From an uncultured Chloroflexia bacterium (GTDB lineage Bacteria; Chloroflexota; Limnocylindria; QHBO01), in the NCBI GenBank assembly GCA_963787025.1, contig CAWBBG010000015.1, positions 32,990 through 96,989 on the forward strand: a stretch of DNA of 64,000 bases, read 5' to 3'. Position numbers and translations under genes: made by a program. The notes beneath the pieces were generated by a model. It saw nothing but the letters and a program-made list of their open reading frames with translations. It was not told the origin of the DNA and did not search any database. The first letter of the stretch is position 1. Each line of letters opens with the position of its first letter. Of this stretch, positions 5,919 through 24,988 are shown piece by piece.

Positions 5919-5957
5919 AAGCTGACGACCGTATCGGCATCTCCTCCGGCCTTGCCT

Positions 5958-6128
5958 CGCTGTGGCAGCGCTGTGCAACAATGCGTCGTCTGGTTTTCCG
6001 CTCTGTTTGAGCGTGAAGCGCGCGCCCGTAGCTCAGCGGACAGAGCGGATGGCTTCGGACCAGAAACCCGATTGCGGTGTGCCTCTCCTCGTGGGATGCC
6101 GAGCATTTCGGCCGAGTTATCCGCTGTG
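5958..6128 (+). repeat. att-like repeat copy A: upstream leader, tRNA-Arg 5' half (6022-6062) and 66-nt arm (6063-6128)
   Basis: GCGCCCGTAGCTCAGCGGACAGAGCGGATGGCTTCGGACCA followed by GAAACCCGATTGCGGTGTGCC..CATTTCGGCCGAGTTATCCGCTGTG. Confidence 0.9.
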
Positions 6129-6175
6129 TTTGCCCTCGATCTCACCCTCCGTCCCCAGGCAGCCCCAGCGCGGGG

Positions 6176-7273
6176 TCACTGGAGGGAGGAAACGATCTCG
6201 CCTGCAGCCGAGGTCTCGAGGAGACGCGAGCCAAGCAGATAGACTCGGGCCCGCCGGTCTCCAGACCCGATGAGCCAGCCGCCCGCCACGGCACGGGCCA
6301 AGTCTCTGGTCGTGCTCTGCGGGCTGCGACCAGTAAGCGCGATGTAGTCCGATGCGCGCAGGTGGCGATTGACCCAGGCGAACGCCAGGCCATCGATCAT
6401 CGACGCCGGGAGGGCGCCCTCGGAGATGGCTCGCCGGATGGCGATCATGATTTCGCCGAGCCCGCGGATCCGCGCTAGGACGAAATCGGCCGAGTTCAGA
6501 AGCGAAGTCAGGAAGTACGAGACGAACGGGGTAGCGTCATACCCAGGCTCGTACGAACGACCAACTGCCGTGCGAATCGCGGCAAAGTATGCGGTCCGGT
6601 CGAGATCCAGCTGGGCATCAAGGGAGACCAAGCCGTCGAGGCCAAAGTCATGGCGGATGAGGATGAACCGCGACACGGCGCGTGCCGTCCGGCCATTGCC
6701 GTCGTTGAATGGGTGGATTGCGACCAGCTCGAGATGGGCGAGAGCCGCCGCCACCAACGGACCGTGTCGCGTCGGAGCCGATGTCAGCCATTGGGAGTAT
6801 TCGCGCATCAGAGACGGGACATCCCCCGACGGTGGCGTGCTGAAGATGGTCCCCCCAGCGTCGTCGATAACGCGGTTTTCGCCACGTCGGTATTCGCCGG
6901 GTGTCAGGAGGGGACTCTGACCCCATAGCACGCGCCGATGAATCTCCCGAATGAAGCCTTCATCGGGTCCAATCGCTGGCTTGGCTGCGAGTTCATCGAC
7001 GAGGGCAAGGGCCTCCCGGGTCCCGATAACCTCGCGGGCCTCTCGATCGTTCAGCCGGCGTCGTTCACCGCCGGCGAGCAGAGCTTCAACTTCCACGTCG
7101 GAGAGGGTGTTGCCCTCGATTCGCGTCGTTCCGTGGATGGTCCGTACCCAGGCTCGGTTGCGAAGCCAGCTGGCGTGAGTAGGGTCGATCGGCAGGTTGC
7201 GGAACAGCCAGCGGCGCTGATCCAGGTCCTCAAGGATCCGCCTGAGGCCACGTGAACGGAGCCGATACCGCAT
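6176..7273 (-). CDS. Fic family protein (Fic motif HPFNDGNGRTAR) with N-terminal TxxxEG inhibitory-type motif and C-terminal winged-helix-like region
   Basis: ORF 6176..7381. Start placed at ATG 7273 (MRYRL), preceded by GGGAGGAG. Motifs HGTTRIEGNTL and HPFNDGNGRTAR. Confidence 0.85.
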   Translation of the reverse strand: MRYRLRSRGLRRILEDLDQRRWLFRNLPIDPTHASWLRNRAWVRTIHGTTRIEGNTLSDVEVEALLAGGERRRLNDREAREVIGTREALALVDELAAKPAIGPDEGFIREIHRRVLWGQSPLLTPGEYRRGENRVIDDAGGTIFSTPPSGDVPSLMREYSQWLTSAPTRHGPLVAAALAHLELVAIHPFNDGNGRTARAVSRFILIRHDFGLDGLVSLDAQLDLDRTAYFAAIRTAVGRSYEPGYDATPFVSYFLTSLLNSADFVLARIRGLGEIMIAIRRAISEGALPASMIDGLAFAWVNRHLRASDYIALTGRSPQSTTRDLARAVAGGWLIGSGDRRARVYLLGSRLLETSAAGEIVSSLQ

Positions 7274-7283
7274 GCGCTCCTCC

Positions 7284-7307
7284 CGGTAATTGCGGATATT
7301 ATTACCG
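7284..7307. promoter_or_regulatory. inverted repeat CGGTAAT-N10-ATTACCG in the AT-richer region upstream of Fic-1
   Basis: Read directly. Lies 11-34 nt upstream of the proposed start at 7273. Confidence 0.3.
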
Positions 7308-7370
7308 CCCACGGTAGTATTCGCAACCTTTACAGCGTTACGTTCAGACGAGACCATCCCGCTCCTCGAG

Positions 7371-7531
7371 CGCTGTGGCACAATGCGTCGTCTGGTTTTC
7401 CGCTCTGTTTGAGCGTGAAGCGCGCGCCCGTAGCTCAGCGGACAGAGCGGATGGCTTCGGACCAGAAACCCGGCCGCGGTGTGCCCACCCTCCTGCAGCG
7501 CCGACCATTTCGCGCCGAGTTATCCGCTGTG
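7371..7531 (+). repeat. att-like repeat copy B (tRNA 5' half 7424-7464, arm 7465-7531)
   Basis: Same leader and the same 41 nt as copy A. Arm variant GAAACCCGGCCGCGGTGTGCCCACCC..CCATTTCGCGCCGAGTTATCCGCTGTG. Confidence 0.9.
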
Positions 7532-7538
7532 TCCCCCG

Positions 7539-7955
7539 TCAGTCCGGGAGGAGGAGCAGGGCGTCGACATGGCGCGGTCGGAGGACACCGAAATGGCGAT
7601 GGTCGAGCGTCGCCAGCTTCGGCTCATTCAGGCGCTCGACGACTGTCAGCACAGCCGCGTCGACATAGCCAATGTCGGCATCGGCGTACCGGTCGCACAG
7701 CTCGGCGATCCGACGATGATCGTCCGCGCTTAGGTTCACGAGCCCGTACGCTCCGCTCTCGATGTCCGCGAGCAACGCGACGAGCACGCCTGGGTGAAGG
7801 CTGCGATGGATGAGGTAGTCCACTTCGACGAGCACGGGAGCCGGGATCAGGAGCGGCTCCTCGCTGCTCTCGATCAGGTGCCGACAGCGAGAATGATCGT
7901 CATCACTGCGGTCGAGGGAGGCGTACAGGGGACCGGTATCGAGGATCAGCGCCAC
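7539..7955 (-). CDS. vapC: PIN-domain toxin VapC
   Basis: GTG start overlaps the vapB end. Acidic PIN residues in LDTGP, VEVDY, IGYVDAAV and TLDHRHF. Confidence 0.85.
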   Translation of the reverse strand: MALILDTGPLYASLDRSDDDHSRCRHLIESSEEPLLIPAPVLVEVDYLIHRSLHPGVLVALLADIESGAYGLVNLSADDHRRIAELCDRYADADIGYVDAAVLTVVERLNEPKLATLDHRHFGVLRPRHVDALLLLPD

Positions 7956-8170
7956 GTGCGCGGCTCAGCCAGCTCGTCGGCCGAGCGGCGAGCGATATCG
8001 GCCTTCCCCGACGCACCCGAGCCGATGCTGCGCGGACGCGGCCGGGCAGTCGCCAGCTTCTCGTCGATGGCCTCGCGCACGATGGTGGCCATCGAGACGC
8101 CGCGTTCGGCGGCGAGCCGTCTCAGCCTTCCCCGGAGTTCGGGTGGAAGGGTAAGGGTGGTGCGCTCCAT
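7946..8170 (-). CDS. vapB: ribbon-helix-helix (CopG/VapB-type) antitoxin
   Basis: MERTTLTLPPELRGRLRRLAAERGVSMATIVREAIDEKL is a typical RHH N-terminus. 10-nt overlap with vapC. Confidence 0.8.
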   Translation of the reverse strand: MERTTLTLPPELRGRLRRLAAERGVSMATIVREAIDEKLATARPRPRSIGSGASGKADIARRSADELAEPRTWR

Positions 8171-8193
8171 GGTGCAATGATAGCAGACGATGC

Positions 8194-8210
8194 ATCACCG
8201 TACTGGTGAT
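8194..8210. promoter_or_regulatory. inverted repeat ATCACC-N5-GGTGAT upstream of vapB (candidate operator)
   Basis: Read directly. Lies 24 nt upstream of the vapB ATG. Confidence 0.35.
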
Positions 8211-8224
8211 CTGGCAGACCATAT

Positions 8225-8396
8225 CGCTGTGCGAGCGCTGTGCAACAATGCCTCGTCTGGTTTTCCGCTCGGTTTGAGCGTGAAGCGCGCGCCCGTAGCT
8301 CAGCGGACAGAGCGGATGGCTTCGGACCAGAAACCCGATTGCGGTGTGCCTCTCCTCGTGGGACGCGGAGCATTTCGGGCCGAGTTATCCGCTGTG
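8225..8396 (+). repeat. att-like repeat copy C (tRNA 5' half 8289-8329, arm 8330-8396)
   Basis: Near-identical to copy A. Confidence 0.9.
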
Positions 8397-8441
8397 TCTG
8401 CCACCTGTAGGAGCCTCCCGCGCGCGGGCCCGCCAAGCGCT

Positions 8442-9503
8442 CTAGATGGCGCGCCGGCCGCGACGGCGGCTTCGCCGGTAGGCGAGGACATCGCGCTTCG
8501 TCGAGTACCAGCGACCGTTCTGGTGAGTCGCGCGGAGTCGGCCCGACTGCGCGGCTCTGCGCAGGGCCAGCGGGCTGAGGTCCCGCTCAGCCAGGGCTGA
8601 CAACGGCAGCAGCCGATGCGGGCCGGCGAGGGCCGGCAACAGGAAGCGGTCCAGCCCGTCCTTGACTGCGCGCGCCACGAGCTCCGCGAGGGACCCGCTG
8701 TTACCGCGATCGGCCCGGCGGAGTGCGGCCAGGTACTTCGCGCGGTCCCGCTTGTAGATCAGGGCGGGCGCGTAGCCTCGCCGCACGAGGAGCAGGTTGA
8801 GGGCGAGGCGACCTGCACGCCCATTCCCATCGCGGAACGGATGGATCTGCTCGAAGCGAGCATGGAGCGTAGCCAGGTGCTCCATGAGGTGCTGTCCGCT
8901 GCGGGGTGCCGCATTCGCGTCCCGGATCCAGTCGCTCATGAGCGCGTGGACGTCGGTGAATGGTGGTGGCTTCATCCCGCCGGCAAAGGCGCCGATGTCG
9001 TGCAGGCGGAATGACCCTGGCCCTTCCCCGGCGATGAGCTGTTCAGGAGGCTTCACTTTCCATACCGCCTCGACCAGGGTTCGGTGGATCTGTCGCAGCT
9101 CGGTCAGCGTGATGTGGTCGCTGGGTACCCAGGCCACCGCCTTAGTTGCCTGCTCGTATACCCATTCAGCGGCTTCTGCATAGCCCTGGACCTCGAGATA
9201 CTGCGCGAGCTCTTCATCCCCGACTGCACGTCCTTCTTCGAGCAAGACCCGGACTTGTTTGAGCAGCAGGGTGTTGCCCTCGATCGCGGTAGAGTTGTGC
9301 GCCTCCTCGTACCAGATGCCCGTCCAGATATCGCGTGCCTCAAACGGTGCGGGCAGCCCGCCGATGCGGCGCATCTCCTCGATCTCGCGATCGACGGCGT
9401 CGAAGATGGCGGTGCGCGAGGGGCGGCCGCGCTGCGGCATCTCAATCGGCATGAGTTCGGTACATACCTCGCCGGATAATTGGACCGTACCGAATTCTAG
9501 CAC
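8442..9503 (-). CDS. Fic family protein (Fic motif HPFRDGNGRAGR) with N-terminal SxxxEG motif; start uncertain (9440-9503)
   Basis: ORF 8442..9503 (GTG). Motifs HNSTAIEGNTL and HPFRDGNGRAGR. Divergent from Fic-1 outside the motifs. Confidence 0.85.
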   Translation of the reverse strand: MLEFGTVQLSGEVCTELMPIEMPQRGRPSRTAIFDAVDREIEEMRRIGGLPAPFEARDIWTGIWYEEAHNSTAIEGNTLLLKQVRVLLEEGRAVGDEELAQYLEVQGYAEAAEWVYEQATKAVAWVPSDHITLTELRQIHRTLVEAVWKVKPPEQLIAGEGPGSFRLHDIGAFAGGMKPPPFTDVHALMSDWIRDANAAPRSGQHLMEHLATLHARFEQIHPFRDGNGRAGRLALNLLLVRRGYAPALIYKRDRAKYLAALRRADRGNSGSLAELVARAVKDGLDRFLLPALAGPHRLLPLSALAERDLSPLALRRAAQSGRLRATHQNGRWYSTKRDVLAYRRSRRRGRRAI

Positions 9504-9549
9504 GTGCTTCGGTACGATGACCTCACAAGAAACCCACCGTACCGAATTC
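9456..9549. promoter_or_regulatory. array of four GTACCGAA/TTCGGTAC motif copies at the 5' end of, and upstream of, Fic-2
   Basis: TTCGGTAC 9456-9463, CGTACCGAATTC 9486-9497, TTCGGTACG 9508-9516, CGTACCGAATTC 9538-9549. The central spacer contains GCACGTGC. Confidence 0.35.
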
Positions 9550-9596
9550 CTTCCCGCTGGCCGAACTGTGAGCTAGATCTGACCCCCAGACCATCC

Positions 9597-9768
9597 CGCT
9601 GTCCGAGCGCTGTGGCAGAATGGCTCGCGTGGTCTTCCGCTCGCTTTGAGCGTGAAGCGCGCGCCCGTAGCTCAGCGGACAGAGCGGGTGGCTTCGGACC
9701 AGAAACCCCGCCGCGGTGTGCCTCTCCTCGTGGGACGTCGACCATTTCGGACTGAGTTATCCGTTGTC
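9597..9768 (+). repeat. att-like repeat copy D (tRNA 5' half 9661-9701 with the A-to-G variant, arm 9702-9768)
   Basis: More diverged leader (GGTCTTCCGCTCGCTTTGAGCGTGAA). The tRNA half reads GAGCGGGTGG. Confidence 0.85.
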
Positions 9769-10264
9769 AACTGGATCCGGCCTACGCCGTCTTTGCGGGG
9801 ACCACCATCGCGTTCGCGGGCGCCCCCGGCCTTGACTCCACGTCTGGCTGGGCCGGTTCACCGGAGGCGACAAAGCCGGAATGTCAGTTCGCCTCCGAGG
9901 CCGACCATCGCTCGTGTCTGTGCCACGCCGCAGTCGCCGAAACCACGGTGAAGTTCCAGCCCGCCGTGGCGCGGCAGCAGGGCGCGAGCTGCGATACGCC
10001 GCGATGGTGCGGCGTAGAGGGCGAACTCTGGTGCGTCGAGCCGCGCCGCTTTCGGTCGGCTCCGGGTTGGCATCGGTGAGGCGGCAGAGCGAAGCTGAAC
10101 CCGTTGCCGGAACCGCCGCGCTCTCACCTCCGGCGAAAGAGGACATTCGGCTCTTGCGGCGTGCGCGAGCACGTCGTACACCGGTGCCCAGACCTTCGGG
10201 AGAAGCCACAGCGGCCCCAGGCCAAAGGCACTGAATCCGCCAGGAAGGCGGGGAGGGGGGGATC

Positions 10265-11581
10265 GTGTCTCGCTTCGTCAAGGCGTTCACCATGGCGGTT
10301 GTTGCGCTGCTTGTGGCTTCGCCAATCCGCGCCGGCGACGGCACGTCCGCAGACACCACGGTTTCGGATGAGTTGCTATCGGCGGCAGTCGGGATGAGAC
10401 AGGCGTTCGGCTTGTCGGCGGATGCCGACTACGTGCGTACTCTCATGGCATCCTCGGGCGATGTGGGGACCCTAGTCTGGGGATTCCCACTCACAGCCGA
10501 GGAGATGCAGAGCCTGGACTTGCAGGGTCGGACCGCCTTCCAGGTGAATTCGCAGGCGGTCCAGGAGTACGCGAGCTCGTTGCCGGGGTTTGGCGGGGCA
10601 TATTTCGACCAAGTCGAAGGAGGCCAGCTTGTCCTCCAATTCACCGCACTGACGGCCGCCGACATGGCGCGCATCTCGCAGCTCGCCGCGACCGACGGCC
10701 CGACGACACGCGTTGAGATCGTGCGCTACTCCTTCGCGGCGCTGCAAGCTGCGATGTCCGCCGCCCAATCCGTGATCCAGGCCGTCGCCCCGTCGATTGA
10801 ACTGGAAAGCGTCGGCATTCGTGAGCCGGAGAATGGGCTGGCCGCCAAGGTCCTTGGATCGGCAGTTTCGATGAGCCAGCTGGAGTCCGCGGTGGCCGCA
10901 CAGCTCAGCGTCCCGATCAGGATCGAGGTTGCCTCAGGTCCACTCGTGCCGGGCTCATGCTCTTCCCGCGATGGGCTCTGCCAGCCCGAGAGGGGAGGGG
11001 TCTGGGCAGGAACGACGGTCGAGGGATGCACCTTCGGTTTCGTGGTCGTCAACGGTTCCGATAAGCAGTTCGTTACTGCGGGCCATTGCGGGAGTGCCTC
11101 TGCTTGGTATCAGCCCTATCCGCACGTTCACCTGCTTGGCTCGCTGCAATCGCAACTCTATCCAGGCACGCACATCGACATGGAGCGCGTCCAACTCCCT
11201 GACACCGATGCATCTAGGTACATCTTTGGCGAAGGCTCGACGTTGATCTACGGCAAGCGGATTCCGTCAACCGGCGCGCTCGTCTACGGATCCTTGGGCC
11301 ACTCCAACGCCGTCCGCTCAGGGACGGTGTACGCGGCCTACGGCAGCTACTACGTGAATGGCTACCAGCTAAACGGGGCAAACGTACATAACCTTGTGAC
11401 TCAAGGCGGTGACAGCGGGTCCCCCCTGTATTACCGCGAGAGTGTCCTCCCGTCTGGATACCAGCTCTATGCGACTGCGACGTACAGCGCTGGCCAAAGC
11501 GGTGGTGGAGAGGCCGACAGGTGGTGGGCGCGAGTCAACGATGCGCTGCTCCAATGGTCAGGTTGGGACATCTACCATTAG
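10265..11581 (+). CDS. secreted S1-family serine protease (alpha-lytic protease/streptogrisin-like) with long pro-region
   Basis: GTG start after a G-rich RBS. Signal-like MAVVALLVASPIRA. Catalytic motifs TAGHCG and GGDSGSPLYY. Confidence 0.85.
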   Translation: MSRFVKAFTMAVVALLVASPIRAGDGTSADTTVSDELLSAAVGMRQAFGLSADADYVRTLMASSGDVGTLVWGFPLTAEEMQSLDLQGRTAFQVNSQAVQEYASSLPGFGGAYFDQVEGGQLVLQFTALTAADMARISQLAATDGPTTRVEIVRYSFAALQAAMSAAQSVIQAVAPSIELESVGIREPENGLAAKVLGSAVSMSQLESAVAAQLSVPIRIEVASGPLVPGSCSSRDGLCQPERGGVWAGTTVEGCTFGFVVVNGSDKQFVTAGHCGSASAWYQPYPHVHLLGSLQSQLYPGTHIDMERVQLPDTDASRYIFGEGSTLIYGKRIPSTGALVYGSLGHSNAVRSGTVYAAYGSYYVNGYQLNGANVHNLVTQGGDSGSPLYYRESVLPSGYQLYATATYSAGQSGGGEADRWWARVNDALLQWSGWDIYH

Positions 11582-11652
11582 TGATCGCCTCTGGAGTTTC
11601 GAGAATGCCGCGTGAGTCCCTGCCTGGCGCGGGCCGAAAGGAATCCAGCGGA

Positions 11653-12102
11653 ATGATGACCCTACGACAGCTACGCATCGCCGCATGTGCGACGCTGATC
11701 GCCACCAACCTCGCTGCATGTAGCACTGCGTCACCCACCCCGCAGCCTGCCCCTGCCCGGTCCCCCGCGCCACTCCCGTCCGGCGCCACTGCTCTGACCC
11801 TGCCCACCGCGGCGCCGGAGGCCGTCATTCCGGTGCACTGGGCCTGCCCGGGGAACACGGTTCAGCCCTCAAAGGTCGTCCGCCACGGAGAGGCCGTGGT
11901 CTTCATCCTCCAGACCACCGGCCAACCCATCGACCTCGTGTGGCCGCGCGGCTTCTCCGCGCGACTTCTGAACGACAGGGCCGAGGTGGTGGCTCCGGAC
12001 GGAACGGTCGTGCTCCGGGAGGGAGACGTCTTCTCCGACATCATCAGTGGCGTGCCGGACATCTGCGAGGTGAAGGGCGTGGGCTACCCGCCAGCGTCGT
12101 AG
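11653..12102 (+). CDS. lipoprotein (lipobox LAAC), paralogue of the 15478-15918 lipoprotein
   Basis: MMTLRQLRIAACATLIATNLAAC. Shared motif LVWPRGFSA..VVAPDGTVVLREGDVF, compared with LVIWPAGSDYA..VLLPGGQVISEGDPL in the paralogue. Confidence 0.6.
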   Translation: MMTLRQLRIAACATLIATNLAACSTASPTPQPAPARSPAPLPSGATALTLPTAAPEAVIPVHWACPGNTVQPSKVVRHGEAVVFILQTTGQPIDLVWPRGFSARLLNDRAEVVAPDGTVVLREGDVFSDIISGVPDICEVKGVGYPPAS

Positions 12103-12459
12103 CGGGGCCCTGGCCGATGCCGGATACCCGCCGACCAAACATGCCAGGGTGGCGGGCCTGGCAGGTGATGGAGAGCAAAGCCCGCACCCAAATTCCACCA
12201 CGTCGCGTGAGGAGCGGAGAACCTGTTAGCGGTCGGCCTCGAGTAGCAGCAGCGAAAACGCGATTCCGCCGCTGAAGCCCGAAGGCGCGTCGTCGAACGT
12301 CGGGTCCTCGCGACGCTAGCTCCTCCTCCGCGTCAGCCTGACGTGCACCAAGACGTACACACTTTCCATTGCTTTTTGCATCCGTGGCGGCGTAGCGTCT
12401 ACACATGCCCTGGACCTCTCGTAAACCAACCGCAAACGCCGCAGCCCACCTGAGAGACC

Positions 12460-12996
12460 TCACTGCCCTGGCTCGGCCAGAATGCCCTGGTTGGGCCCAC
12501 GGCTGACTGCCCTGTCACATGAGGCGAGCGGTCCCTCGCAGGCGGCCAGGATGCGGCGCAGCTCGTCATCGGTCAGGATCGGTGGCGCGTGCTCGGGCAC
12601 CTTCGGCTTGTGCATGCGGGCCATGGGGTTGTCGCCCAGCTCAGCCTCGTCGACCAGCCACACAAAGAACGGGCGGATCCCCGAGCGATTGGCCGCGGTG
12701 GCCCGCGTCCAGTGCGCCAGCTGGTCCTCCATGAACGATTCGAGGTGTTCGCGGCGAATGGCGGCCACATCGGTCGGCATGCCACGCGCCTCGAGGAATT
12801 CAGCCAGCCTGCCGAGCGAGGCGAGATAGGTGCGCTGGGTGGCGAGTGAGAGGTTCTCGGCGCGCAGATGCCGCGCGAAGCTCGCCACGTTGGCGCCGAG
12901 GTCGCCGCGGGGTACCATGACCGGACTGGAGGGGGCTGACTGCATCCTGAGACGGCTCTGACGGGTTTCCGAAGACGCGTCGAATTTTCCGCTCAT
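12460..12996 (-). pseudogene. truncated tyrosine integrase (N-terminal SAM-like domain only)
   Basis: The first ~155 aa are identical to the integrase at 23863-24858, up to ILAACEGP. The sequence then becomes unrelated and stops. No catalytic R..HxxR..Y region. Confidence 0.85.
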
Positions 12997-13091
12997 AGCG
13001 CTGTAGTCAATGCCGAATCTGGTTTTCCGCTCTCTTTGAGCGTGAAACGCGCGCCCGTAGCTCAGCGGACAGAGCGGGTGGCTTCGGACCA
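12533..13091 (+). repeat. 559-bp direct repeat, copy 1 (partner 24395-24953), one mismatch (13078 G vs 24940 A)
   Basis: Base-by-base comparison of the two stretches. Identical sub-ORFs appear in the track (12573..12785 and 24435..24647). Confidence 0.9.
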
Positions 13092-13158
13092 GAAACCCGA
13101 CTGCGGTGTGCTCGCCCTCGTGAAGCGGCGACCATTTCGCGCCGAGTTATCCGCTGTC
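12999..13158 (+). repeat. att-like repeat copy E (tRNA 5' half 13051-13091 with the G variant, arm 13092-13158)
   Basis: Leader identical to that of the intact tRNA copy. Arm GAAACCCGACTGCGGTGTGCTCGCC..CCATTTCGCGCCGAGTTATCCGCTGTC. Confidence 0.9.
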
Positions 13159-13282
13159 CCGTCAGCCAGCCCAGGGTGCCAAGGTACGGCAAGGGCTCGG
13201 CTCGCAAGTACCGCCCGAGAACTCCGCGGCTGCCATTTATGACCACTTCCCCGACTTCCCTCGCCCGCCCCTGATTACGGAG

Positions 13283-13453
13283 ATGAAAGGGCCGGTGCGA
13301 GTTGTGGCATTCTCTGGACCGCGAGACGGTGTGCCCCTCCTGGTCGCTCCCGGCGCCACTGCACCTCCCATGGTGAACGTGGTCTGTGTTGTTGATCCGA
13401 ACGGGGAGGAGTGGTACTTCACAGACGTCCCGCTCGATTCTTACCGACCATAG
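13283..13453 (+). CDS. small hypothetical protein (56 aa)
   Basis: ATG preceded by GGAG. MKGPVRVVAFSGPRDGVPLLVAPG..VVCVVDPNGEEWYFTDVPL. Not in the track because it is shorter than 60 aa. Confidence 0.3.
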   Translation: MKGPVRVVAFSGPRDGVPLLVAPGATAPPMVNVVCVVDPNGEEWYFTDVPLDSYRP

Positions 13454-14032
13454 CTACGGCACCATCCCAGAGATATCGACTCCGGTGAAGACGTAGGCCT
13501 CGCCGGAAACCGGAGCCCCCAGCCAGACGCAGAGATCCCGCTCCTGGCCGTTGGCCGGCATGATTGTGGACGGCGGGTGGAATCCGAGCTGAGGCTGGAT
13601 CGGCCCCTGCCATGTGTCTTGGAACACAACCACGAACGTTGGCTGACCAGCGTCCGGAAGACTGAGCCGCGCATTCGGAAAGTGCGCGGCGAAGCCAACG
13701 CCGGAAGACATTGAGAATGCAGCCAGGACGGGTTGAGTATCGCCGTAGCATTCGCTGAAGCGAGGGTCGGCAGAGTCGATTGGGTACCCAGCGCTCCCTC
13801 CGTGCGGCTGCCCCGGTCCGAGAAGTCCCAGAAGAGAATCTCGCCCAACCGCTAAGGCCATGATCAATATGGCCACCGTCACAAACGCCGTGACAGCGAA
13901 CCTTCTCCTCCGCGTACGCTCCCGATCCGGCAAATTGGCCGCAAACTGCCGAAGTGATTCGAGGGCGGCATCGTCTGGTTGGTCGACATCGTGCAGTACG
14001 TGCTCGACAAGATCCTCAAATCGCTCTGTCAT
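13454..14032 (-). CDS. putative anti-sigma factor (single TM, extracytoplasmic C-terminal domain)
   Basis: ATGA overlap with the ECF sigma gene. Central TM FAVTAFVTVAILIMALAV. Confidence 0.55.
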   Translation of the reverse strand: MTERFEDLVEHVLHDVDQPDDAALESLRQFAANLPDRERTRRRRFAVTAFVTVAILIMALAVGRDSLLGLLGPGQPHGGSAGYPIDSADPRFSECYGDTQPVLAAFSMSSGVGFAAHFPNARLSLPDAGQPTFVVVFQDTWQGPIQPQLGFHPPSTIMPANGQERDLCVWLGAPVSGEAYVFTGVDISGMVP

Positions 14033-14565
14033 CTCCGCTCCTCTGCGTCGTAGGCTGCCCTCAGCCGCTGCATTGCGCTCGAGAGTCGTGACTTGACGGT
14101 TCCTTCAGGTATGGACAGCAGATGCCCCGACGCCGCCTGGGTAAGCCCGAGGTAGTAGCGAGCAACGATGACGGCTCGGTCCTTAGTGCTCAGGGCAGAG
14201 AGAGCTCTCCGTAGAGTGCTGTGGGCTACGATTCTGTCGAGATCGACATCGGCCATGTGTATCCAAGCGTCCTCGATTGGTGCCCTCGCTCGTTTTCCCC
14301 TCGTGGCCTTCACTGCGGCCCGAGACACATGGCGAAAGAACCACGCTCGGAAGGCATCCGGCTCGCGGAGCTTTGGCAGGTCCCGCCAAGTGGACAACAG
14401 AGCATCCTGGACTGCATCCGCTGGATCGCATCGGCCAGCAGAAATGAGTCGCGCGATTGACCAGGCCTGAGCGAGGTGAGGCTCGACAAGGTCGGCAAAG
14501 GCACCGCCGTCGCCCAAGATTGAACGCCCCACCAGCGATGGCTGGTCCGACACGATGTTCTCCAC
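14029..14565 (-). CDS. ECF (sigma-70 family, group 4) RNA polymerase sigma factor
   Basis: Region 2-like DAVQDALLSTWRDLPKLREPDAFRAWFF. Region 4 HTH LSTKDRAVIVARYYLGLTQAASGHLLSIPEGTVKSRL. Many non-GC third positions. Confidence 0.8.
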   Translation of the reverse strand: MENIVSDQPSLVGRSILGDGGAFADLVEPHLAQAWSIARLISAGRCDPADAVQDALLSTWRDLPKLREPDAFRAWFFRHVSRAAVKATRGKRARAPIEDAWIHMADVDLDRIVAHSTLRRALSALSTKDRAVIVARYYLGLTQAASGHLLSIPEGTVKSRLSSAMQRLRAAYDAEERR

Positions 14566-14785
14566 GTACTTAGGTTCCTAGCAAGCGCACTTTCGTTCGG
14601 AATCCAATCGGCGTCCAGCGTCTCCGGTGCTGCCCGTGTCGCCTCAGACCAGGGATGTCCGTGTGTAATGGCCGGCTCTGAGCCCATCGAGGGTAAAGGC
14701 GAACTGCCTGCCGGCCGCCGGCCAACGCTTGATCGCCCCGGTCGACGCCGCTGCGCCGGCACCGGAGACCGAGCCGGTCGAGCCC

Positions 14786-14922
14786 GACGAGCAGCGAGCC
14801 GCGGTGGTCAACACCACCATCGAGGAGCTGGCCCGGGAGGGGGCCCGACGCATGCTGGAGCGCGCCCTGGCGGTCGAGGTCGACGAGTTCCTGGGCGGTC
14901 GCCGATACGAGCACCGCCTCTT
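14786..14922 (+). pseudogene. IS256-family transposase N-terminal fragment (remnant)
   Basis: DEQRAAVVNTTIEELAREGARRMLERALAVEVDEFLGGRRYE matches residues of the 17585-18805 transposase. The homology is lost after about 14922. Confidence 0.7.
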
Positions 14923-15477
14923 GGATGCTCCCGCGCCCACGATCAGCAACCGCACGCGTGGCTCAAGCGTGGTGGTTGTCGCCACCGTCGTGGACATCGG
15001 CTCAGCGCGCTCGGCGGTATGGCAGATTGCTTCACATTCCTTGTGGACGGCGCGCCCAAGCTGATCGTGTTCTTCCTGGGTCCCAGCCGAGCGGAGAGCG
15101 GTGCCGATGAGCCAGAGTGGAGCGGTCCAGACACCACTCGACGGTTCGCTGTCGATTCCGGCCTTCTCAACAGCGGTGACAGCAGCCACCAACTGAGAAC
15201 CAGGGCCGCCGTCCAAACCGCGCGACTGGACGCTTGGCGACACTGTCCCGCTTCCTAGGCAAACGCTGCCCATCGGCGAGTTGGGGTCCGAAACGCAGCT
15301 CGCCGACGATATGGCTGCGATCCGTCGACCGTGGCTGCGGCCATCTGACCGGCATCCATCGTCACGATCGCCTCAGCGCGAAGGCGACAGTCGTCGCCGA
15401 AGGGCCTGCAGCCAAACCACCGAAGTCAGGCGAGCACTGCTGTGCCCAACAGTCGGGATCGATGGAGACCCCGGACC

Positions 15478-15918
15478 TCAGGAACCTCGGTCGGCCGTGT
15501 CGATGACGATCACCTCAGAGGCGTTAGGCGCGCAACCGCGGATCGCATAGGCCAACGAGCTGTCCCGGTTGGCGAGCAGAGGTTCCGTCGGCGTTAACGC
15601 TCCGGTACCGACCAGCGGGTCTCCCTCGGAGATTACCTGCCCGCCGGGCAGCAGAACACCCTGCGGCCTGTCGCCCAGGTCCGCGTAGTCCGAGCCGGCG
15701 GGCCAGATGACCAGATAGGTCTCGCCATCGAGCGCGATATTCAGGCACCCGAAATCCGAGACCTCTAGCACGCCGCTGATCTCTCGGCGATCTCCAGGAT
15801 ACGTCTCTCCAGCGTGCTGCCTGGGCAGAGGCATGCCGCCCTCACCGATCCAGCATCCACTCAGGAGCAGGGCGAGCCCAGAGGCCACTATCGTGCGGCT
15901 CACGGTCAAGAACCTCAA
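15478..15918 (-). CDS. lipoprotein (lipobox LLSGC), paralogue of 11653-12102
   Basis: MRFLTVSRTIVASGLALLLSGC, plus the WP.G...EGD motif shared with the unit-4 lipoprotein. Confidence 0.65.
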   Translation of the reverse strand: MRFLTVSRTIVASGLALLLSGCWIGEGGMPLPRQHAGETYPGDRREISGVLEVSDFGCLNIALDGETYLVIWPAGSDYADLGDRPQGVLLPGGQVISEGDPLVGTGALTPTEPLLANRDSSLAYAIRGCAPNASEVIVIDTADRGS

Positions 15919-15952
15919 CCTTCGGCCCTAATGCTCGCGGGTCGCTCCGCCC

Positions 15953-16738
15953 TCAAGCTAGCCGTCGCCGGGACACAGCCAGCGCGCCCATGAATACCGC
16001 GACCGCGGCCGCACCAAGCACCGCCGGCAGAGGAAAGCCTCCGTGCGGAGACACCTCGGGCGTTGGGCCAGCCCCAGCGAGTCCGGCGTCACGATCGCCC
16101 ATCGCCCAAGCCGCTGCGAGTCGACTCAGCCGCGTCCTGAGCGCCGAGGTGTATTCCCCGACGGGAACCGGACGATCAGGAAGCTCAAGTGCCGCGCGAA
16201 ACGCCTCGTCCGCAACAGGCATCGCAACCGAGACACCTCTCGCCGAGCCCAGCACAATCGTGGCGTCCTCCGGGATGTAGACGATCCTGGCATCGGGATC
16301 GCCGACCTCGTTCAACGCATCTGACAGCAGCTGCGCCGGTATCTGGTTCAGGGCGACTGCCTCCGGTCGATTCACAGTGGAGGGCCACTGGACCGTCACG
16401 ACGATCTTGGGGGCGGAATCGATGCCAAGGATCACCCACCACAGGTCAGTGGTGACCGTGGCCATGTCGACGGTTCGACCATCTTCCTCCTGTCGGAATT
16501 GGGAGTCGAGTGCATGCAGAGGCAGGATGGTCACGGGTCGCAGCAACGGGAGGTCTTCAGCAGTGACCCCAAGGCGGTCGCCCTCGGCGGGATCCGCCTG
16601 AAGCAATGCGTCAAATCCTTGGGCGTAGGCCACGGCGACCTTGCCGATCTCATTCGTTCGATCGTCGCCGCCGGCACCCATAAGAAACGGCAGCACCAGC
16701 AGCGCCACAACGGCTGGCGTCGAGAATCGCGCACTCAT
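15953..16738 (-). CDS. hypothetical membrane-anchored protein (N- and C-terminal TM segments)
   Basis: Start at the internal ATG 16738, giving an ATGA overlap with the upstream peptidase gene stop. TM segments VVALLVLPFLMGA and AVLGAAAVAVFMGALAV. Confidence 0.5.
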   Translation of the reverse strand: MSARFSTPAVVALLVLPFLMGAGGDDRTNEIGKVAVAYAQGFDALLQADPAEGDRLGVTAEDLPLLRPVTILPLHALDSQFRQEEDGRTVDMATVTTDLWWVILGIDSAPKIVVTVQWPSTVNRPEAVALNQIPAQLLSDALNEVGDPDARIVYIPEDATIVLGSARGVSVAMPVADEAFRAALELPDRPVPVGEYTSALRTRLSRLAAAWAMGDRDAGLAGAGPTPEVSPHGGFPLPAVLGAAAVAVFMGALAVSRRRLA

Positions 16739-17349
16739 TGGTGAATCTTCCAGAGGGTGTTGGTCCACGTGAACGTTGAGTTGTTCTTGAAGTAGCTCCA
16801 CGAGTACCACACGTACGTTGCCGGGTTGGGCCAGGGATCCATCACCGAGAACTGGTCGGTGCCGCCATCGTGCCAGTAGTAGCCGCGGCCGACGAAGATA
16901 TGGCCACCTCCAGAACTCCAGCCGACCCGAATCAAGAATGGTCGACGCTGAGTCCCGATCTCACCGGTCGTCTGTGACCAACTCAGAGACCACCACTCGT
17001 GGGTCGAATCGATGGCCTTCTTGGCGTGGAGGTAGTTTCCGACGTCGGCCAGCGCCGACGGTTGGTTGCAGTTGCCAGAGCTCGGGTACTGGCAGCAGTC
17101 GGATCGGTTGAACCGATCGTTGGCCTGCTGACATTGCGTGTATGTGATGCCGAACAGGTACTGCACGACAGACTGCGTCGAAGCTGCCCAGCACCACTGG
17201 TTCTGGGTCTGGTGGACCAGCGGGACCGACAGCGAAACGCCGCCCGACGCGGCGTTTGCGGGCAGCGCCGTCACCTGCGACATGGACGCAGCGAGCAGGA
17301 ACGCCGCCGCCGCCGCCGCGCTCCTTCGCAGCCAAGAACGCTCGACCAT
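16735..17349 (-). CDS. secreted papain-like cysteine peptidase (C39/C70-like fold)
   Basis: Signal-like AAAAAFLLAASMSQVTALPANA. Q-x5-C arrangement HQTQNQWCWAAS and downstream GGGHIFVGRGYYW (candidate catalytic His). Confidence 0.6.
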   Translation of the reverse strand: MVERSWLRRSAAAAAAFLLAASMSQVTALPANAASGGVSLSVPLVHQTQNQWCWAASTQSVVQYLFGITYTQCQQANDRFNRSDCCQYPSSGNCNQPSALADVGNYLHAKKAIDSTHEWWSLSWSQTTGEIGTQRRPFLIRVGWSSGGGHIFVGRGYYWHDGGTDQFSVMDPWPNPATYVWYSWSYFKNNSTFTWTNTLWKIHQ

Positions 17350-17559
17350 TGAAGATCTCCCCCGCACCTGACGGCCTGCGGCTGGCATGAGCCGGTCAAG
17401 TAGGCGTCGTCGACACGGTCGCTTCAGGGACTGATTGGATCAAGAGCCATTCGGCCCATTCGCCCTGGCCTTCGTCGGCGGTCTCGAGCAACGGGCCCTC
17501 GATCGCCCAGTTAGTCACGGCGCGCCCGCTGGTCGGCGCTTCCAGACCGGACAACGCGC

Positions 17560-18900
17560 AGTGCGTGAACAACGGCTTGCCACATCAGGCCGCCGACACC
17601 TGTGCCGACTGCGGCACGTACACGCCGTCGACGAAGCGGGCGCCGCCGAGCAGCAGGGTCATGACCGTCAGCCCGCCGTTCAAGGGTCGCCAGGAGTGCT
17701 CGAGGCGCTGGGCGACCTTGAACACCAGGTAGAGGGCGTTCTCGCGGCGGCGCATGCGCTTGGCGACGTCGGTCCGGAGGCGCACCCCGGCGAACACCGA
17801 CTCGATCGGGTTGCTGGTGCGCAGGTGGATCCAGTGCTCGGCCGGAAAGTCGTAGAAGGTCACGAAGTCGTCCCAGTCGCGCAGCACCGTCTCGGCCGCG
17901 CTCGTCTGGCCGTGGGCCTCCAGCCAGCGCACGAGGGCGTCGCGACGCAGCTCGCACTCGGCGCGGCTCTCCGAGCTCCACGCCTCACGCAGCCGGCGCC
18001 GGGTCTCGGGCCACAGTCGTTTTGGGACCTTATCCAGCACGTTGAGAACGCGATGGTTCCAGCAGCGCTGGTGGCGGGTGGTCGGGAAGACTTCGTCGAG
18101 GGCGGCCCACAGCCCGAGCGCTCCGTCGCCGCAGGCGAGCAGCGGTGCGGCCAGGCCGCGATCCCGGAGGTCGCGCAGCACGCCGGCCCAACTGGCGGCG
18201 CTCTCGCGGTAGCCGAGCGGGCGCACGCGCCAGGCGGCGTATTCAGTCGCCCACTCGTCCTTGAGGCGCAGGATGGTCGAGCCTGACAGCGGTGCAGACT
18301 CGCCGAGCAGCTCGCGGAAGGCGGGCTCGAAGTCGCCGGAACTCAACCCCTCGAGGTAGAGCCGCGCGAAGAGTCGTTGGGTCTCGGCCGAGAGCATGCG
18401 GCGCCGCGGCAGGATCGAGCTGTGGAACGACTCCCCGTCCTCGGGCAGGTCGCGCACCCGCGGTGCGCGCACCTCAACCGGCCAAGTCCCGATCGCCACC
18501 GCTCGCGGGCGACCGTACCCATTGCGGTAGCCGTGCTCGGCGAGCAGGCGGCGCTGGTAGCGAGATCGGCCGAGGAACTCGTCGACCTCGGCGGCGAGTG
18601 CCCGTTCGAGCATGCGCCGTGCGCCCTCCCGGGCCAGCTCCTCGATGGTCGTGTTGACGACCGCGGCTGGCTGCTCGTCTGGATGCGTCGGCTCGGGCTC
18701 CTCGGACGGCTTTGATGTAGTCGCCGGCGCGATCGCGTGCTCGCCCATCTGCTGGTCCGGCGGCTGAGACGGCGCGAACGAGGTCAGGGCATGGTACGTT
18801 TCCATCGCGGCGTGCTCCTTCTGTAGCCTGAAGACCTTCGGAGGGTACGCCGCTTTCTCATGCCCGCGAGAGGACGAGGAGCGCAGCGGCGTTTACACAC
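17560..18900 (-). mobile_element. IS256-family insertion sequence (ends not confidently defined)
   Basis: The transposase gene fills the element. Only weak terminal similarity was seen around the GTGTGTAA/GTGCGTGAA motifs. Confidence 0.5.
17585..18805 (-). CDS. IS256-family (mutator-type) transposase with an apparent in-frame internal deletion of the first catalytic Asp region
   Basis: Family motifs ELAREGARRML, YRNGY, CGDGALGLWAAL, HQRCWNHRVLNVL, HLRTSNPIES. The segment normally between ..EYAAW.. and ..YRESxxSW.. is missing (YAAWRVRPLGYRESAASW). Confidence 0.8.
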   Translation of the reverse strand: METYHALTSFAPSQPPDQQMGEHAIAPATTSKPSEEPEPTHPDEQPAAVVNTTIEELAREGARRMLERALAAEVDEFLGRSRYQRRLLAEHGYRNGYGRPRAVAIGTWPVEVRAPRVRDLPEDGESFHSSILPRRRMLSAETQRLFARLYLEGLSSGDFEPAFRELLGESAPLSGSTILRLKDEWATEYAAWRVRPLGYRESAASWAGVLRDLRDRGLAAPLLACGDGALGLWAALDEVFPTTRHQRCWNHRVLNVLDKVPKRLWPETRRRLREAWSSESRAECELRRDALVRWLEAHGQTSAAETVLRDWDDFVTFYDFPAEHWIHLRTSNPIESVFAGVRLRTDVAKRMRRRENALYLVFKVAQRLEHSWRPLNGGLTVMTLLLGGARFVDGVYVPQSAQVSAA

Positions 18901-23862: not shown

Positions 23863-24858
23863 CTACAGTCGGTCGCCGATGCCGAGCCGCCTGGCGGCCG
23901 CGATGGCGCGCTCCCGCTCGGCGCTCTTCGCGTAGCGCGACAGCATCTCGCGGCTGCGCCAGCCCGCGAGGGCCATGACCTCGCCCTCCTGCATGCCGCT
24001 CGATAGCGCCTCGTGGGCATAGGTGTGGCGGAACAGGTGGGCGTGGAGCTGTGGGACCCTCGCGGCGGCACCCCGCCGCCGGAGGACCTGGGCGATCCCG
24101 GAGTCGGTCATCCGGCCCTTCTCGCCCAGCCACAGCCAGGGCGCTTCAGCGCGCGGGTGGCGAGCGCGGAGGCGCAGGTAGCGGTCGAGCGCGCGCACGG
24201 CCTTGGCGCCGAGGTGGACGATCCGCTCGCGCCGACCCTTGCCCATGACCCGCATCAGCCCGGCGTCGAGGTCGAGGTCATTGGTCGCGGGGTCCGCTGG
24301 CGTCCAGCGCAGGTTGGCGACCTCCGACAGGCGGGCGCCGGTGGCGAGGAAGGTGCGCACCAATGCGGCATCCCGGCGATCGGCGAAGGTCGGCCCCTCG
24401 CAGGCGGCCAGGATGCGGCGCAGCTCGTCATCGGTCAGGATCGGTGGCGCGTGCTCGGGCACCTTCGGCTTGTGCATGCGGGCCATGGGGTTGTCGCCCA
24501 GCTCAGCCTCGTCGACCAGCCACACAAAGAACGGGCGGATCCCCGAGCGATTGGCCGCGGTGGCCCGCGTCCAGTGCGCCAGCTGGTCCTCCATGAACGA
24601 TTCGAGGTGTTCGCGGCGAATGGCGGCCACATCGGTCGGCATGCCACGCGCCTCGAGGAATTCAGCCAGCCTGCCGAGCGAGGCGAGATAGGTGCGCTGG
24701 GTGGCGAGTGAGAGGTTCTCGGCGCGCAGATGCCGCGCGAAGCTCGCCACGTTGGCGCCGAGGTCGCCGCGGGGTACCATGACCGGACTGGAGGGGGCTG
24801 ACTGCATCCTGAGACGGCTCTGACGGGTTTCCGAAGACGCGTCGAATTTTCCGCTCAT
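23863..24858 (-). CDS. tyrosine recombinase/integrase (XerC/D-like phage integrase family)
   Basis: Start at ATG 24858 (MSGKFDASS). The track ORF extends spuriously across the tRNA. Catalytic-type motifs ARLSEV, HLFRHTYAH, GWRSREMLSRY. Confidence 0.9.
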   Translation of the reverse strand: MSGKFDASSETRQSRLRMQSAPSSPVMVPRGDLGANVASFARHLRAENLSLATQRTYLASLGRLAEFLEARGMPTDVAAIRREHLESFMEDQLAHWTRATAANRSGIRPFFVWLVDEAELGDNPMARMHKPKVPEHAPPILTDDELRRILAACEGPTFADRRDAALVRTFLATGARLSEVANLRWTPADPATNDLDLDAGLMRVMGKGRRERIVHLGAKAVRALDRYLRLRARHPRAEAPWLWLGEKGRMTDSGIAQVLRRRGAAARVPQLHAHLFRHTYAHEALSSGMQEGEVMALAGWRSREMLSRYAKSAERERAIAAARRLGIGDRL

Positions 24859-24953
24859 AGCGCTGTAGTCAATGCCGAATCTGGTTTTCCGCTCTCTTTG
24901 AGCGTGAAACGCGCGCCCGTAGCTCAGCGGACAGAGCGGATGGCTTCGGACCA
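24395..24953 (+). repeat. 559-bp direct repeat, copy 2 (partner 12533-13091)
   Basis: See copy 1. Confidence 0.9.
24861..24912 (+). promoter_or_regulatory. conserved leader upstream of tRNA-Arg (repeat copy F, presumed to contain the tRNA promoter)
   Basis: CGCTGTAGTCAATGCCGAATCTGGTTTTCCGCTCTCTTTGAGCGTGAAACGC is conserved in all six copies from TGGT(T/C)TTCCGCTC onward. No canonical -10/-35 hexamers were recognised. Confidence 0.35.
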
Positions 24954-24988
24954 TCAGGTCGCGGGTTCGATTCCTGCCGGGCGCGCCA
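24913..24988 (+). tRNA. tRNA-Arg (anticodon UCG), CCA encoded
   Basis: Cloverleaf read by eye: acceptor GCGCCCG/CGGGCGC; D arm GCTC-AGCGGACA-GAGC; anticodon arm GATGG-CTTCGGA-CCATC; variable AGGTC; T arm GCGGG-TTCGATT-CCTGC; discriminator G; CCA. Confidence 0.95.

Follow-up and report, generated by a model that had tools for sequence, protein, structure and literature searches.

The window analysed here, a 64,000-nt stretch of contig C15 from a 2.34 Mb genome in 27 contigs, encodes a secreted serine protease of the alpha-lytic type (MEROPS S1E) that is followed, on the same strand, by a small lipoprotein, which we call lipo1. Comparison with related genomes clearly shows that this arrangement is a recurrent module, which we regard as almost certainly real. 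The window also encodes a second lipoprotein, lipo2, next to a papain-like cysteine peptidase. The three genes on which the argument turns are as follows:

10265-11581, plus strand: pre-pro alpha-lytic-type (S1E) secreted serine protease, 438 aa (PDB phmmer, motifs)
11653-12102, plus strand: lipo1, 149-aa lipoprotein with lipobox LAAC, founding member of the VWPRGFSA...PDG.VV.EGD domain family (family profile, AlphaFold2 (AF2) model)
15478-15918, minus strand: lipo2, 146-aa lipoprotein with a TTG start and lipobox LSGC, probable remote homologue of lipo1 (hhalign, iterated search, AF2 model)

The explanation that we favour, to which as a whole we give a probability of about 0.5, is that a single family of small extracytoplasmic domains includes both lipo1 and lipo2, which have diverged, and that lipo2 belongs to a separate, mobile branch of it. 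The S1E protease with its downstream same-strand lipoprotein would be an ancestral module in the lipo1 clade, recurring across the family, whose protease member has often been lost or has decayed, leaving orphan lipoproteins behind. The lipid-anchored domain, on the outer face of the cytoplasmic membrane, may bind the secreted protease that is its cognate partner.

The earlier note on this DNA had described an alpha-lytic-type S1 protease followed 71 nt later by a lipoprotein, and the open reading frames (ORFs), the catalytic motifs, the match to PDB sequences and the lipobox all agree with this description. The catalytic domain of the protease occupies approximately residues 250-438 (the C-terminal ~190 residues), behind a long N-terminal pro-region of ~220 aa, and carries its triad in the chymotrypsin-fold order His/Asp/Ser, with His in TAGHC, Asp in HIDME and Ser in GDSGSP. 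By phmmer, its closest PDB entries were alpha-lytic protease and Streptomyces griseus protease B (SGPB), with an E-value of 4e-5, the alignment with alpha-lytic protease spanning residues 252-386. The catalytic motifs and the long pro-region are thus common to the window protease and the alpha-lytic protease/streptogrisin family (S1E), from which its best PDB matches come, although the window protease is very divergent: neither the Pfam models Trypsin, Trypsin_2 and Pro_Al_protease nor NCBIfam matched it at E ≤ 0.1, and the relatives at loci L040 and L072 matched Pfam Trypsin only at E-values of 4e-3 to 6e-3, under the cut-off. It is too divergent for the Pfam and NCBIfam models and, because S1E proteases are invisible to Pfam, their genes were located with a local protease hidden Markov model (HMM) built here. 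The lipo1 gene has the ribosome-binding site GAAAGGA, and both lipoproteins carry a lipobox of the pattern [LVI][ASTVI][GAS]C. We know of no partner lipoprotein described for the characterised alpha-lytic-type enzymes.

The neighbourhood of these genes was examined in a class sample of 400 genomes, in which two genes were counted as co-located when they lay within 2.5 kb and the expectation was derived from copy numbers and genome sizes. Neighbours at key loci were checked on all six frames; a GC3-based gene caller (GC content at third codon positions) missed island genes and sometimes called the wrong strand. An S1E protease gene lies directly upstream of a family lipoprotein gene on the same strand at nine loci, spread over different genera and no fewer than two families of the class, the gap between the two genes being short or negative (identities are to the window proteins):

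Window, own genome: protease intact
L003: protease intact; protease 47% and lipoprotein 58% identical
L108: protease intact; protease 59% and lipoprotein 66% identical
L107: only the last ~100 codons of the protease; protease 82% and lipoprotein 80% identical
L057, genome G253: protease intact
L038, genome G235: protease intact
L039, genome G294: protease truncated after the pro-region
L052, genome G006: protease frameshifted, split over two frames
L072, genome G342: only the C-terminal half of the protease

In addition, the two genes are divergent neighbours at L041 (G288) and lie 1.3 kb apart at L040 (G052). The class sample held four protease/lipoprotein co-locations besides the window's own, whereas ~0.06 would be expected by chance, an excess of more than 50-fold. 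The protease is decayed and the lipoprotein intact in four of the nine pairs (L107, L039, L052 and L072). In the family tree the protease-linked lipoproteins are scattered, the supported branches forcing at least three changes, and within the lipo1 clade genes with the protease alternate with orphans, as would fit an ancestral linkage to the protease that was lost repeatedly.

At 20 further S1E protease loci no family member was found nearby, and at eight of these a different small gene on the same strand, mostly with a lipobox, starts between -39 and +39 nt downstream of the protease (L084:4735-5142, L092:4518-4931, L088:2771-3364, L089:3001-3465, L090:4779-5225 and L087:4660-5268 encode small lipoproteins). 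These genes fall into at least two other families, which the superfamily HMM did not match: the proteins of L089 and L090 are related (E 4e-18), that of L088 is weakly related to that of L089 (E 1e-3), those of L084 and L092 look alike by eye, with no BLASTP match at E ≤ 0.01, and that of L087 matches none of the others. Because eight of the 20 further loci carry such a gene, the placing of a small lipoprotein gene behind a protease gene looks like a general arrangement in which the partners are interchangeable. Two peptidase candidates from a motif screen of the loci, a Kelch-repeat protein at L073 and FtsH at L077, were rejected as false.

A number of findings weigh against the lipoprotein being a protease partner. 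Only three of the 40 best class matches of the family have an S1E protease neighbour, as has only one of the 11 loci from species-representative genomes, and more than 90% of lipo1-superfamily members have no peptidase neighbour. Most members have housekeeping genes as neighbours (e.g. ATP synthase, murA, leuS and aminotransferase), so that the family cannot be solely a protease partner, and many lie in conserved core-genome contexts. The Pfam tally of 58 neighbours of lipo1-family genes contained, among the matches listed, only housekeeping families, none of them in more than two loci, and no peptidase family with two members, although single peptidase matches could be hidden. From the side of the protease, S1E homologues occur at 53 places in 37 of the 400 genomes and 46 of these 53 have no family lipoprotein beside them, which means that in general the protease needs the lipoprotein neither for folding nor for self-protection. 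Searches of Pfam and NCBIfam, of the PDB by profile and of the PDB by Foldseek gave no similarity to the known protease-inhibitor families SSI, ecotin, staphostatin, Inh/AprI, chagasin and serpin, and an inhibitory or immunity function is something that we infer in its entirety. The homology between lipo1 and lipo2 rests on ~45 aligned columns. Finally, fusions of the domain to large proteins and its adjacency to genes for extracytoplasmic function (ECF) sigma factors fit a general binding or sensing module.

Under the alternative that survives best, the family would serve generally in the cell envelope, as a lipoprotein or binding domain, and would have nothing directly to do with proteases, next to which it would have come to lie through the clustering and co-travel of envelope and secreted genes on islands. 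In its favour, most members lie in housekeeping or unrelated contexts, the domain is also fused to beta-propeller-like proteins and adjoins ECF sigma genes, and most S1E proteases have no such lipoprotein beside them. Nevertheless, we consider this alternative unlikely, as it sits poorly with nine same-strand pairs with short or negative gaps in different genera, with co-location more than 50-fold above chance, with protease remnants still attached to intact lipoprotein genes, and with the presence of other small lipoprotein genes at the corresponding position after other S1E proteases.

Secreted proteases with a small partner encoded alongside are already a known kind of system, whereas the lipoprotein family is new. 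The earlier note had not recognised it, and Pfam, NCBIfam, PDB and Foldseek searches likewise yielded no known family: neither lipoprotein matched Pfam or NCBIfam, neither family profile matched PDB sequences, and no Pfam domain was present in any of the 57 homologues of lipo1 or the 11 homologues of lipo2. A literature search found nothing relevant. The family is predicted to be a new, unannotated, small extracytoplasmic beta-rich domain, possibly similar to the oligonucleotide/oligosaccharide-binding (OB) fold. Among 1.84 billion cluster representatives the lipo1 profile retrieved 919 (E ≤ 1e-3), and it matched 107 of the 400 class genomes, many of them at several places. The family has its centre in the Limnocylindria-type Chloroflexota class to which this genome belongs. 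Its signature is [VI]-W-P-x-G-[FSWY], followed after 10-14 residues by P-D-G-x-V-[VI]-x-x-G-D. Most matches are ~150 aa in length, and the domain usually makes up a lipoprotein of 140-160 aa, while it also forms the C-terminus of some proteins of 400-715 aa and is fused to beta-propeller-like proteins. The window's own genome has five or six superfamily members. A 586-aa membrane-anchored protein encoded in this genome (C16:191402-193162), with repeated 'SxDGxxW' motifs that are BNR-like by eye and with no Pfam match, ends in the family domain.

At locus L048 (5015-6801) the last part of an ECF sigma gene is overlapped by the gene for a 410-aa protein with a C-terminal family domain, and further members adjoin such genes at L070 (3965-5864, 265 aa), L059 (5007-8687, 530 aa), L073 (4184-5428, a short protein of 183 aa) and L113, the domain being C-terminal in the larger proteins of L070 and L059 too. 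No anti-sigma Pfam domain was detected in the proteins of L048, L073, L070 and L059. It is as if the family domain served as an extracytoplasmic anti-sigma sensor next to ECF sigma genes, the putative anti-sigma nature of these proteins being read from gene order alone.

Homology of the two lipoproteins, asserted in the earlier note, stands at the level of a superfamily. BLASTP aligned lipo1 and lipo2 with 28% identity over 60 aa (pairwise E 4e-5). Alignment of the two family profiles by hhalign gave a probability of 81% (E 1.2e-5, 48 columns), and with a deeper profile of 91 sequences, from an exhaustive search of the 1.84 billion representatives, a probability of 84.6% (E 6.8e-6, 44 columns). 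In an iterated HMM search of ~30,000 ORFs that started from the lipo1 family, a lipo2-family protein entered in round 2 with an E-value of 2.7e-4, before any lipo2-family sequence was in the profile; lipo2 itself was recruited in round 5, and the search converged at 78 proteins without drift. In addition, two proteins of genome G245 match both the lipo1- and the lipo2-family profile. The similarity is thus upheld by proper alignment, and lipo1 and lipo2 are very probably remote homologues in one superfamily with a common core of 45-60 residues. They are not close paralogues; the lipo1-family HMM alone did not reach lipo2 among the genome's own ORFs. Nor are they a special pair, since the genome holds five or six superfamily members.

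The AF2 models, with predicted local distance difference test (pLDDT) scores of 92 for lipo1 and 85 for lipo2, place the strands in the same order round the conserved turn in both proteins: two strands, a strand ending in V-W-P-x-G and short strands with P-D-G-x-V-V-x-x-G-D. Outside this core the models differ, lipo2 having an extra C-terminal helix and strand. A Foldseek search of the PDB with the lipo1 model returned no match, with nothing under an E-value of 0.7, and that with the lipo2 model returned weak matches to OB domains (ExoVII, Rpb7, AspRS and RPA; E 6e-3 to 0.2, template modelling (TM) scores of 0.33-0.38). A convergent or chance resemblance of unrelated proteins in a short beta-hairpin motif would agree with the alignment of only 44-60 residues, with the failure of the lipo1-family HMM to find lipo2, with the disagreement of the fold searches and with the additional C-terminal elements of lipo2. 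We judge it improbable all the same, as it would have to explain the hhalign probabilities of 81-85%, the recruitment of the whole lipo2 family by a search that then converges without drift, the sequences that match both profiles and the like predicted strand order round the WPxG turn.

We turn now to what the lipoprotein of the S1E module might do. Several secreted proteases have a co-transcribed, dedicated inhibitor, i.e. staphopain with staphostatin, the alkaline protease AprA with AprI (Inh) and SpeB with Spi. In these systems, as here, a small beta-rich protein is encoded directly downstream on the same strand, and its presumed role is protection of the producer. By analogy with them, the membrane-anchored partner may be a self-protection inhibitor or immunity protein for the producing cell, a tentative proposal to which we give somewhat less than an even chance. 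The systems differ in that the window lipoproteins have neither sequence nor fold similarity to the inhibitors, the protease is of S1E type and has as its partner a lipoprotein from a monoderm-type Chloroflexota, most family members are orphans, and inhibition is a putative property. A second comparison is with the lysozyme inhibitor lipoprotein MliC and the lysozyme-binding anti-sigma factor RsiV, which suggest that an extracellular hydrolase could be a target for neutralisation by a small beta-barrel with a lipid anchor; the family domain, likewise, is also found at the extracytoplasmic end of ECF-sigma-coupled proteins. Here the target would be a protease and there is no homology. On this analogy the domain may have been reused on the ECF-sigma-coupled proteins as a sensor, i.e. 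as a protease-binding module.

Toxin-immunity modules with orphan immunity genes offer a third parallel, among them polymorphic toxin, bacteriocin and type VI secretion system (T6SS) amidase systems with lipoprotein immunity proteins. The likeness lies in the small gene directly downstream, in the repeated decay of the upstream enzyme while the small gene is kept, in copies on islands and insertion sequence (IS) elements, and in the different partner families behind homologous enzymes. The parallel differs in that nothing seen here is evidence of an antibacterial role for the protease and in that many family members lie in core-genome contexts, which is atypical for immunity genes. A bolder extension, which we think decidedly unlikely, is that the lipoproteins form a lineage-specific family of lipid-anchored beta-barrel immunity proteins or inhibitors directed against secreted, possibly bacteriolytic alpha-lytic-type proteases; orphans on islands and IS elements would then protect their hosts from the proteases of neighbours, and recruitment of the domain as an ECF anti-sigma sensor would allow cells both to neutralise and to sense foreign proteases.

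The gene order and tight spacing would equally suit an enzyme with its foldase, as in the lipase-specific foldases, whose genes follow that of the lipase, or in the lipoprotein PrsA, and the lipid anchor would put the lipoprotein where the protease emerges from the membrane. However, a role of the membrane-tethered lipoprotein in maturing or anchoring the protease, as a private foldase or docking site and not as an inhibitor, seems to us very unlikely. The protease has its own pro-region of ~220 aa, and in the alpha-lytic protease family the pro-region is the folding catalyst; moreover, the persistence of orphan lipoproteins after decay of the protease is hard to square with a dedicated foldase, and most S1E proteases have no such lipoprotein at all.

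If the lipoprotein is indeed a protease-binding partner, as we favour, it would be the first dedicated partner of the alpha-lytic-type proteases, for which, to our knowledge, no partner proteins have been described, and the module would give a first functional handle on an unannotated family of ~900 clusters from an abundant uncultured soil lineage. Should the partner prove to be an inhibitor or immunity protein, it would represent a new inhibitor fold and would point to protease-based antagonism among soil Chloroflexota, and the repeated protease decay, the retained lipoproteins and the IS-borne copies would then clearly exemplify orphan immunity genes. With a link of position alone, what remains is an ordinary new lipoprotein family.

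The second lipoprotein, lipo2, stands in a minus-strand cluster whose coordinates, papain-like peptidase and ATGA coupling are as the earlier note had given them; the features of this part of the window are as follows:

15382-18218, minus strand: 2.85-kb segment with lipo2, the anchored protein, the C39-like peptidase and part of a Mutator transposase (blastn, tblastn)
15953-16738, minus strand: 261-aa secreted protein, with a signal-like segment at the N-terminus and anchored in the membrane by its C-terminus; matched no family in Pfam or NCBIfam
16735-17349, minus strand: secreted papain-like cysteine peptidase of the Peptidase_C39_2/C70 type (Pfam)
17585-18805: Mutator-family transposase (Transposase_mut; Pfam)

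The cysteine peptidase matches PF13529 (Peptidase_C39_2) with an E-value of 1.2e-6 and 29.6 bits, above the curated cut-off of 24, and PF12385 (Peptidase_C70) with an E-value of 1.5e-5 and 25.3 bits, above the curated cut-off of 19; its putative catalytic Cys (in QNQWCWAAS) and His (in GGGHIF) are in the expected order, and the two proteases of the window thus belong, as had been claimed, to unrelated catalytic classes. The TGA stop codon of the peptidase overlaps the ATG of the anchored protein, and lipo2 starts 34 nt further on. The whole segment is 90.7% identical at the DNA level, over 2.85 kb, with L027:2790-5628 (contig C209 of genome G104, which belongs to another genus), where transposase sequence stands on both sides of it. 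This indicates recent horizontal transfer of the trio of peptidase, anchored protein and lipo2, and the pairing in G104 is not independent evidence because it lies on the same recently transferred element. The sole homologue found of the 261-aa anchored protein is in G104. A further fragment of the same Mutator transposase was noted at 14729-15064 of the window.

The lipo2 family occurs in 13 of the 400 class genomes, and a C39-like peptidase stands beside lipo2 only in G104. Elsewhere, a relative in genus g6 has a conserved core context with MarR-like, aldolase-like and cytochrome genes, a 63%-identical relative lies among glycosyltransferase genes, and on three different contigs of one sample the gene for a 69%-identical relative follows an IS1595-family transposase at a distance of 49 nt (L102:3819-5423, L103:4419-5423 and L104:433-1929). 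Because the same 49-nt arrangement recurs on three contigs, this last relative looks like an IS passenger gene. One of the IS1595-borne copies is beside RHS/YD-shell toxin genes and another is beside genes of a cyclic oligonucleotide-based antiphage signalling system (CBASS). Homologues of the C39-like peptidase were found in only six of the 400 genomes. The peptidase beside lipo2 is therefore a feature of one recently transferred segment and no family trait, and lipo2 is a member of a separate, sparsely distributed, mobile subfamily, carried as an IS1595 passenger or in the Mutator-flanked segment.

The window's own genome holds a third member (C21:220026-220457), 590 nt from a divergently transcribed S8 subtilase, so that three of its five or six members adjoin secreted peptidases of three classes, S1E, C39-like and S8; this three-class adjacency is anecdotal. 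The earlier note had gone further and suggested a functional pairing of the conserved lipoprotein with different secreted proteases, and had asked whether its homologues are enriched near peptidases. This is partly supported: for S1E proteases the module is recurrent and the enrichment is present as a minority association, whereas neither extends to the cysteine peptidase. That one family broadly supplies partners, inhibitors or immunity proteins to secreted peptidases of unrelated classes, C39-like ones included, is highly improbable: the three-class adjacency would arise by chance with a probability of roughly 2e-4 (if the genome has ~30 secreted peptidase genes, an assumed number), but the lipo2/C39-like pair is confined to one 91%-identical mobile segment, the pairing is absent from ~11 other lipo2-family contexts and from the four other C39-like loci inspected, where no lipoprotein-family member lies nearby, tblastn found no homologue of the C21 S8 subtilase in loci L001-L113, and no peptidase family has two members among the 58 lipo1-family neighbours, among the matches listed.

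The earlier note had placed the protease and its lipoprotein in one of two neighbouring island units, and such units are real: the leader and 5' half of a tRNA-Arg(TCG) gene recur in five copies of ~180 bp, at about 5957, 7351, 8215, 9587 and 12989, and divide positions 5957-13165 into a stack of small units upstream of the intact tRNA-Arg(TCG) at 24913-24988. A 563-bp repeat, 99.6% identical between the protease-lipo1 unit and 24391-24953, duplicates the start of an integrase gene (blastn). The features of this part of the window are:

9587-13165: island unit between two partial tRNA-Arg copies, with the protease and lipo1 as cargo (repeats)
12460-12996, minus strand: N-terminal integrase fragment (SAM-like N-domain only) inside the protease-lipo1 unit (Pfam)
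13454-14032, minus strand: single-pass membrane protein coupled to the ECF sigma factor, putative anti-sigma factor (gene order)
14029-14565, minus strand: ECF sigma factor (Pfam Sigma70_r2 and Sigma70_r4)

The protease-lipo1 module is cargo of a decayed island unit at tRNA-Arg. A search for the tRNA-Arg att repeats in the flanks of related loci, as a sign of cassette movement of the protease-lipo1 unit, found none in the fetched flanks, and a promoter and terminator scan of the unit was uninformative. The ECF sigma factor and its putative anti-sigma factor (13454-14565) lie between the lipo1 and lipo2 genes and are given as context only. On the related metagenome contig of L107 (1935-6359), HigB/HTH, RHH/PIN, the protease remnant with its lipoprotein, and Fic stand in a row; this cargo mix consists of the same small-gene types as the island stack of the window, with no tRNA-Arg repeats in the fetched stretch.

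The lipoprotein-maturation enzymes Lgt and LspA are both encoded in the genome, Lgt reading in two frames. The genes for Lgt (C21:90201-90993) and the S8 subtilase (C21:221049-223618) each occupy two overlapping frames, which reflects either frameshifts or assembly errors in this metagenome-assembled genome (MAG). Finally, locus L002 (CAYVLM010000003.1, i.e. contig C3 of G173), from a genome in the genus of the window genome, has a lipo1 gene that is 72% identical; its public title names Steroidobacteraceae (Pseudomonadota), a label that is probably wrong.

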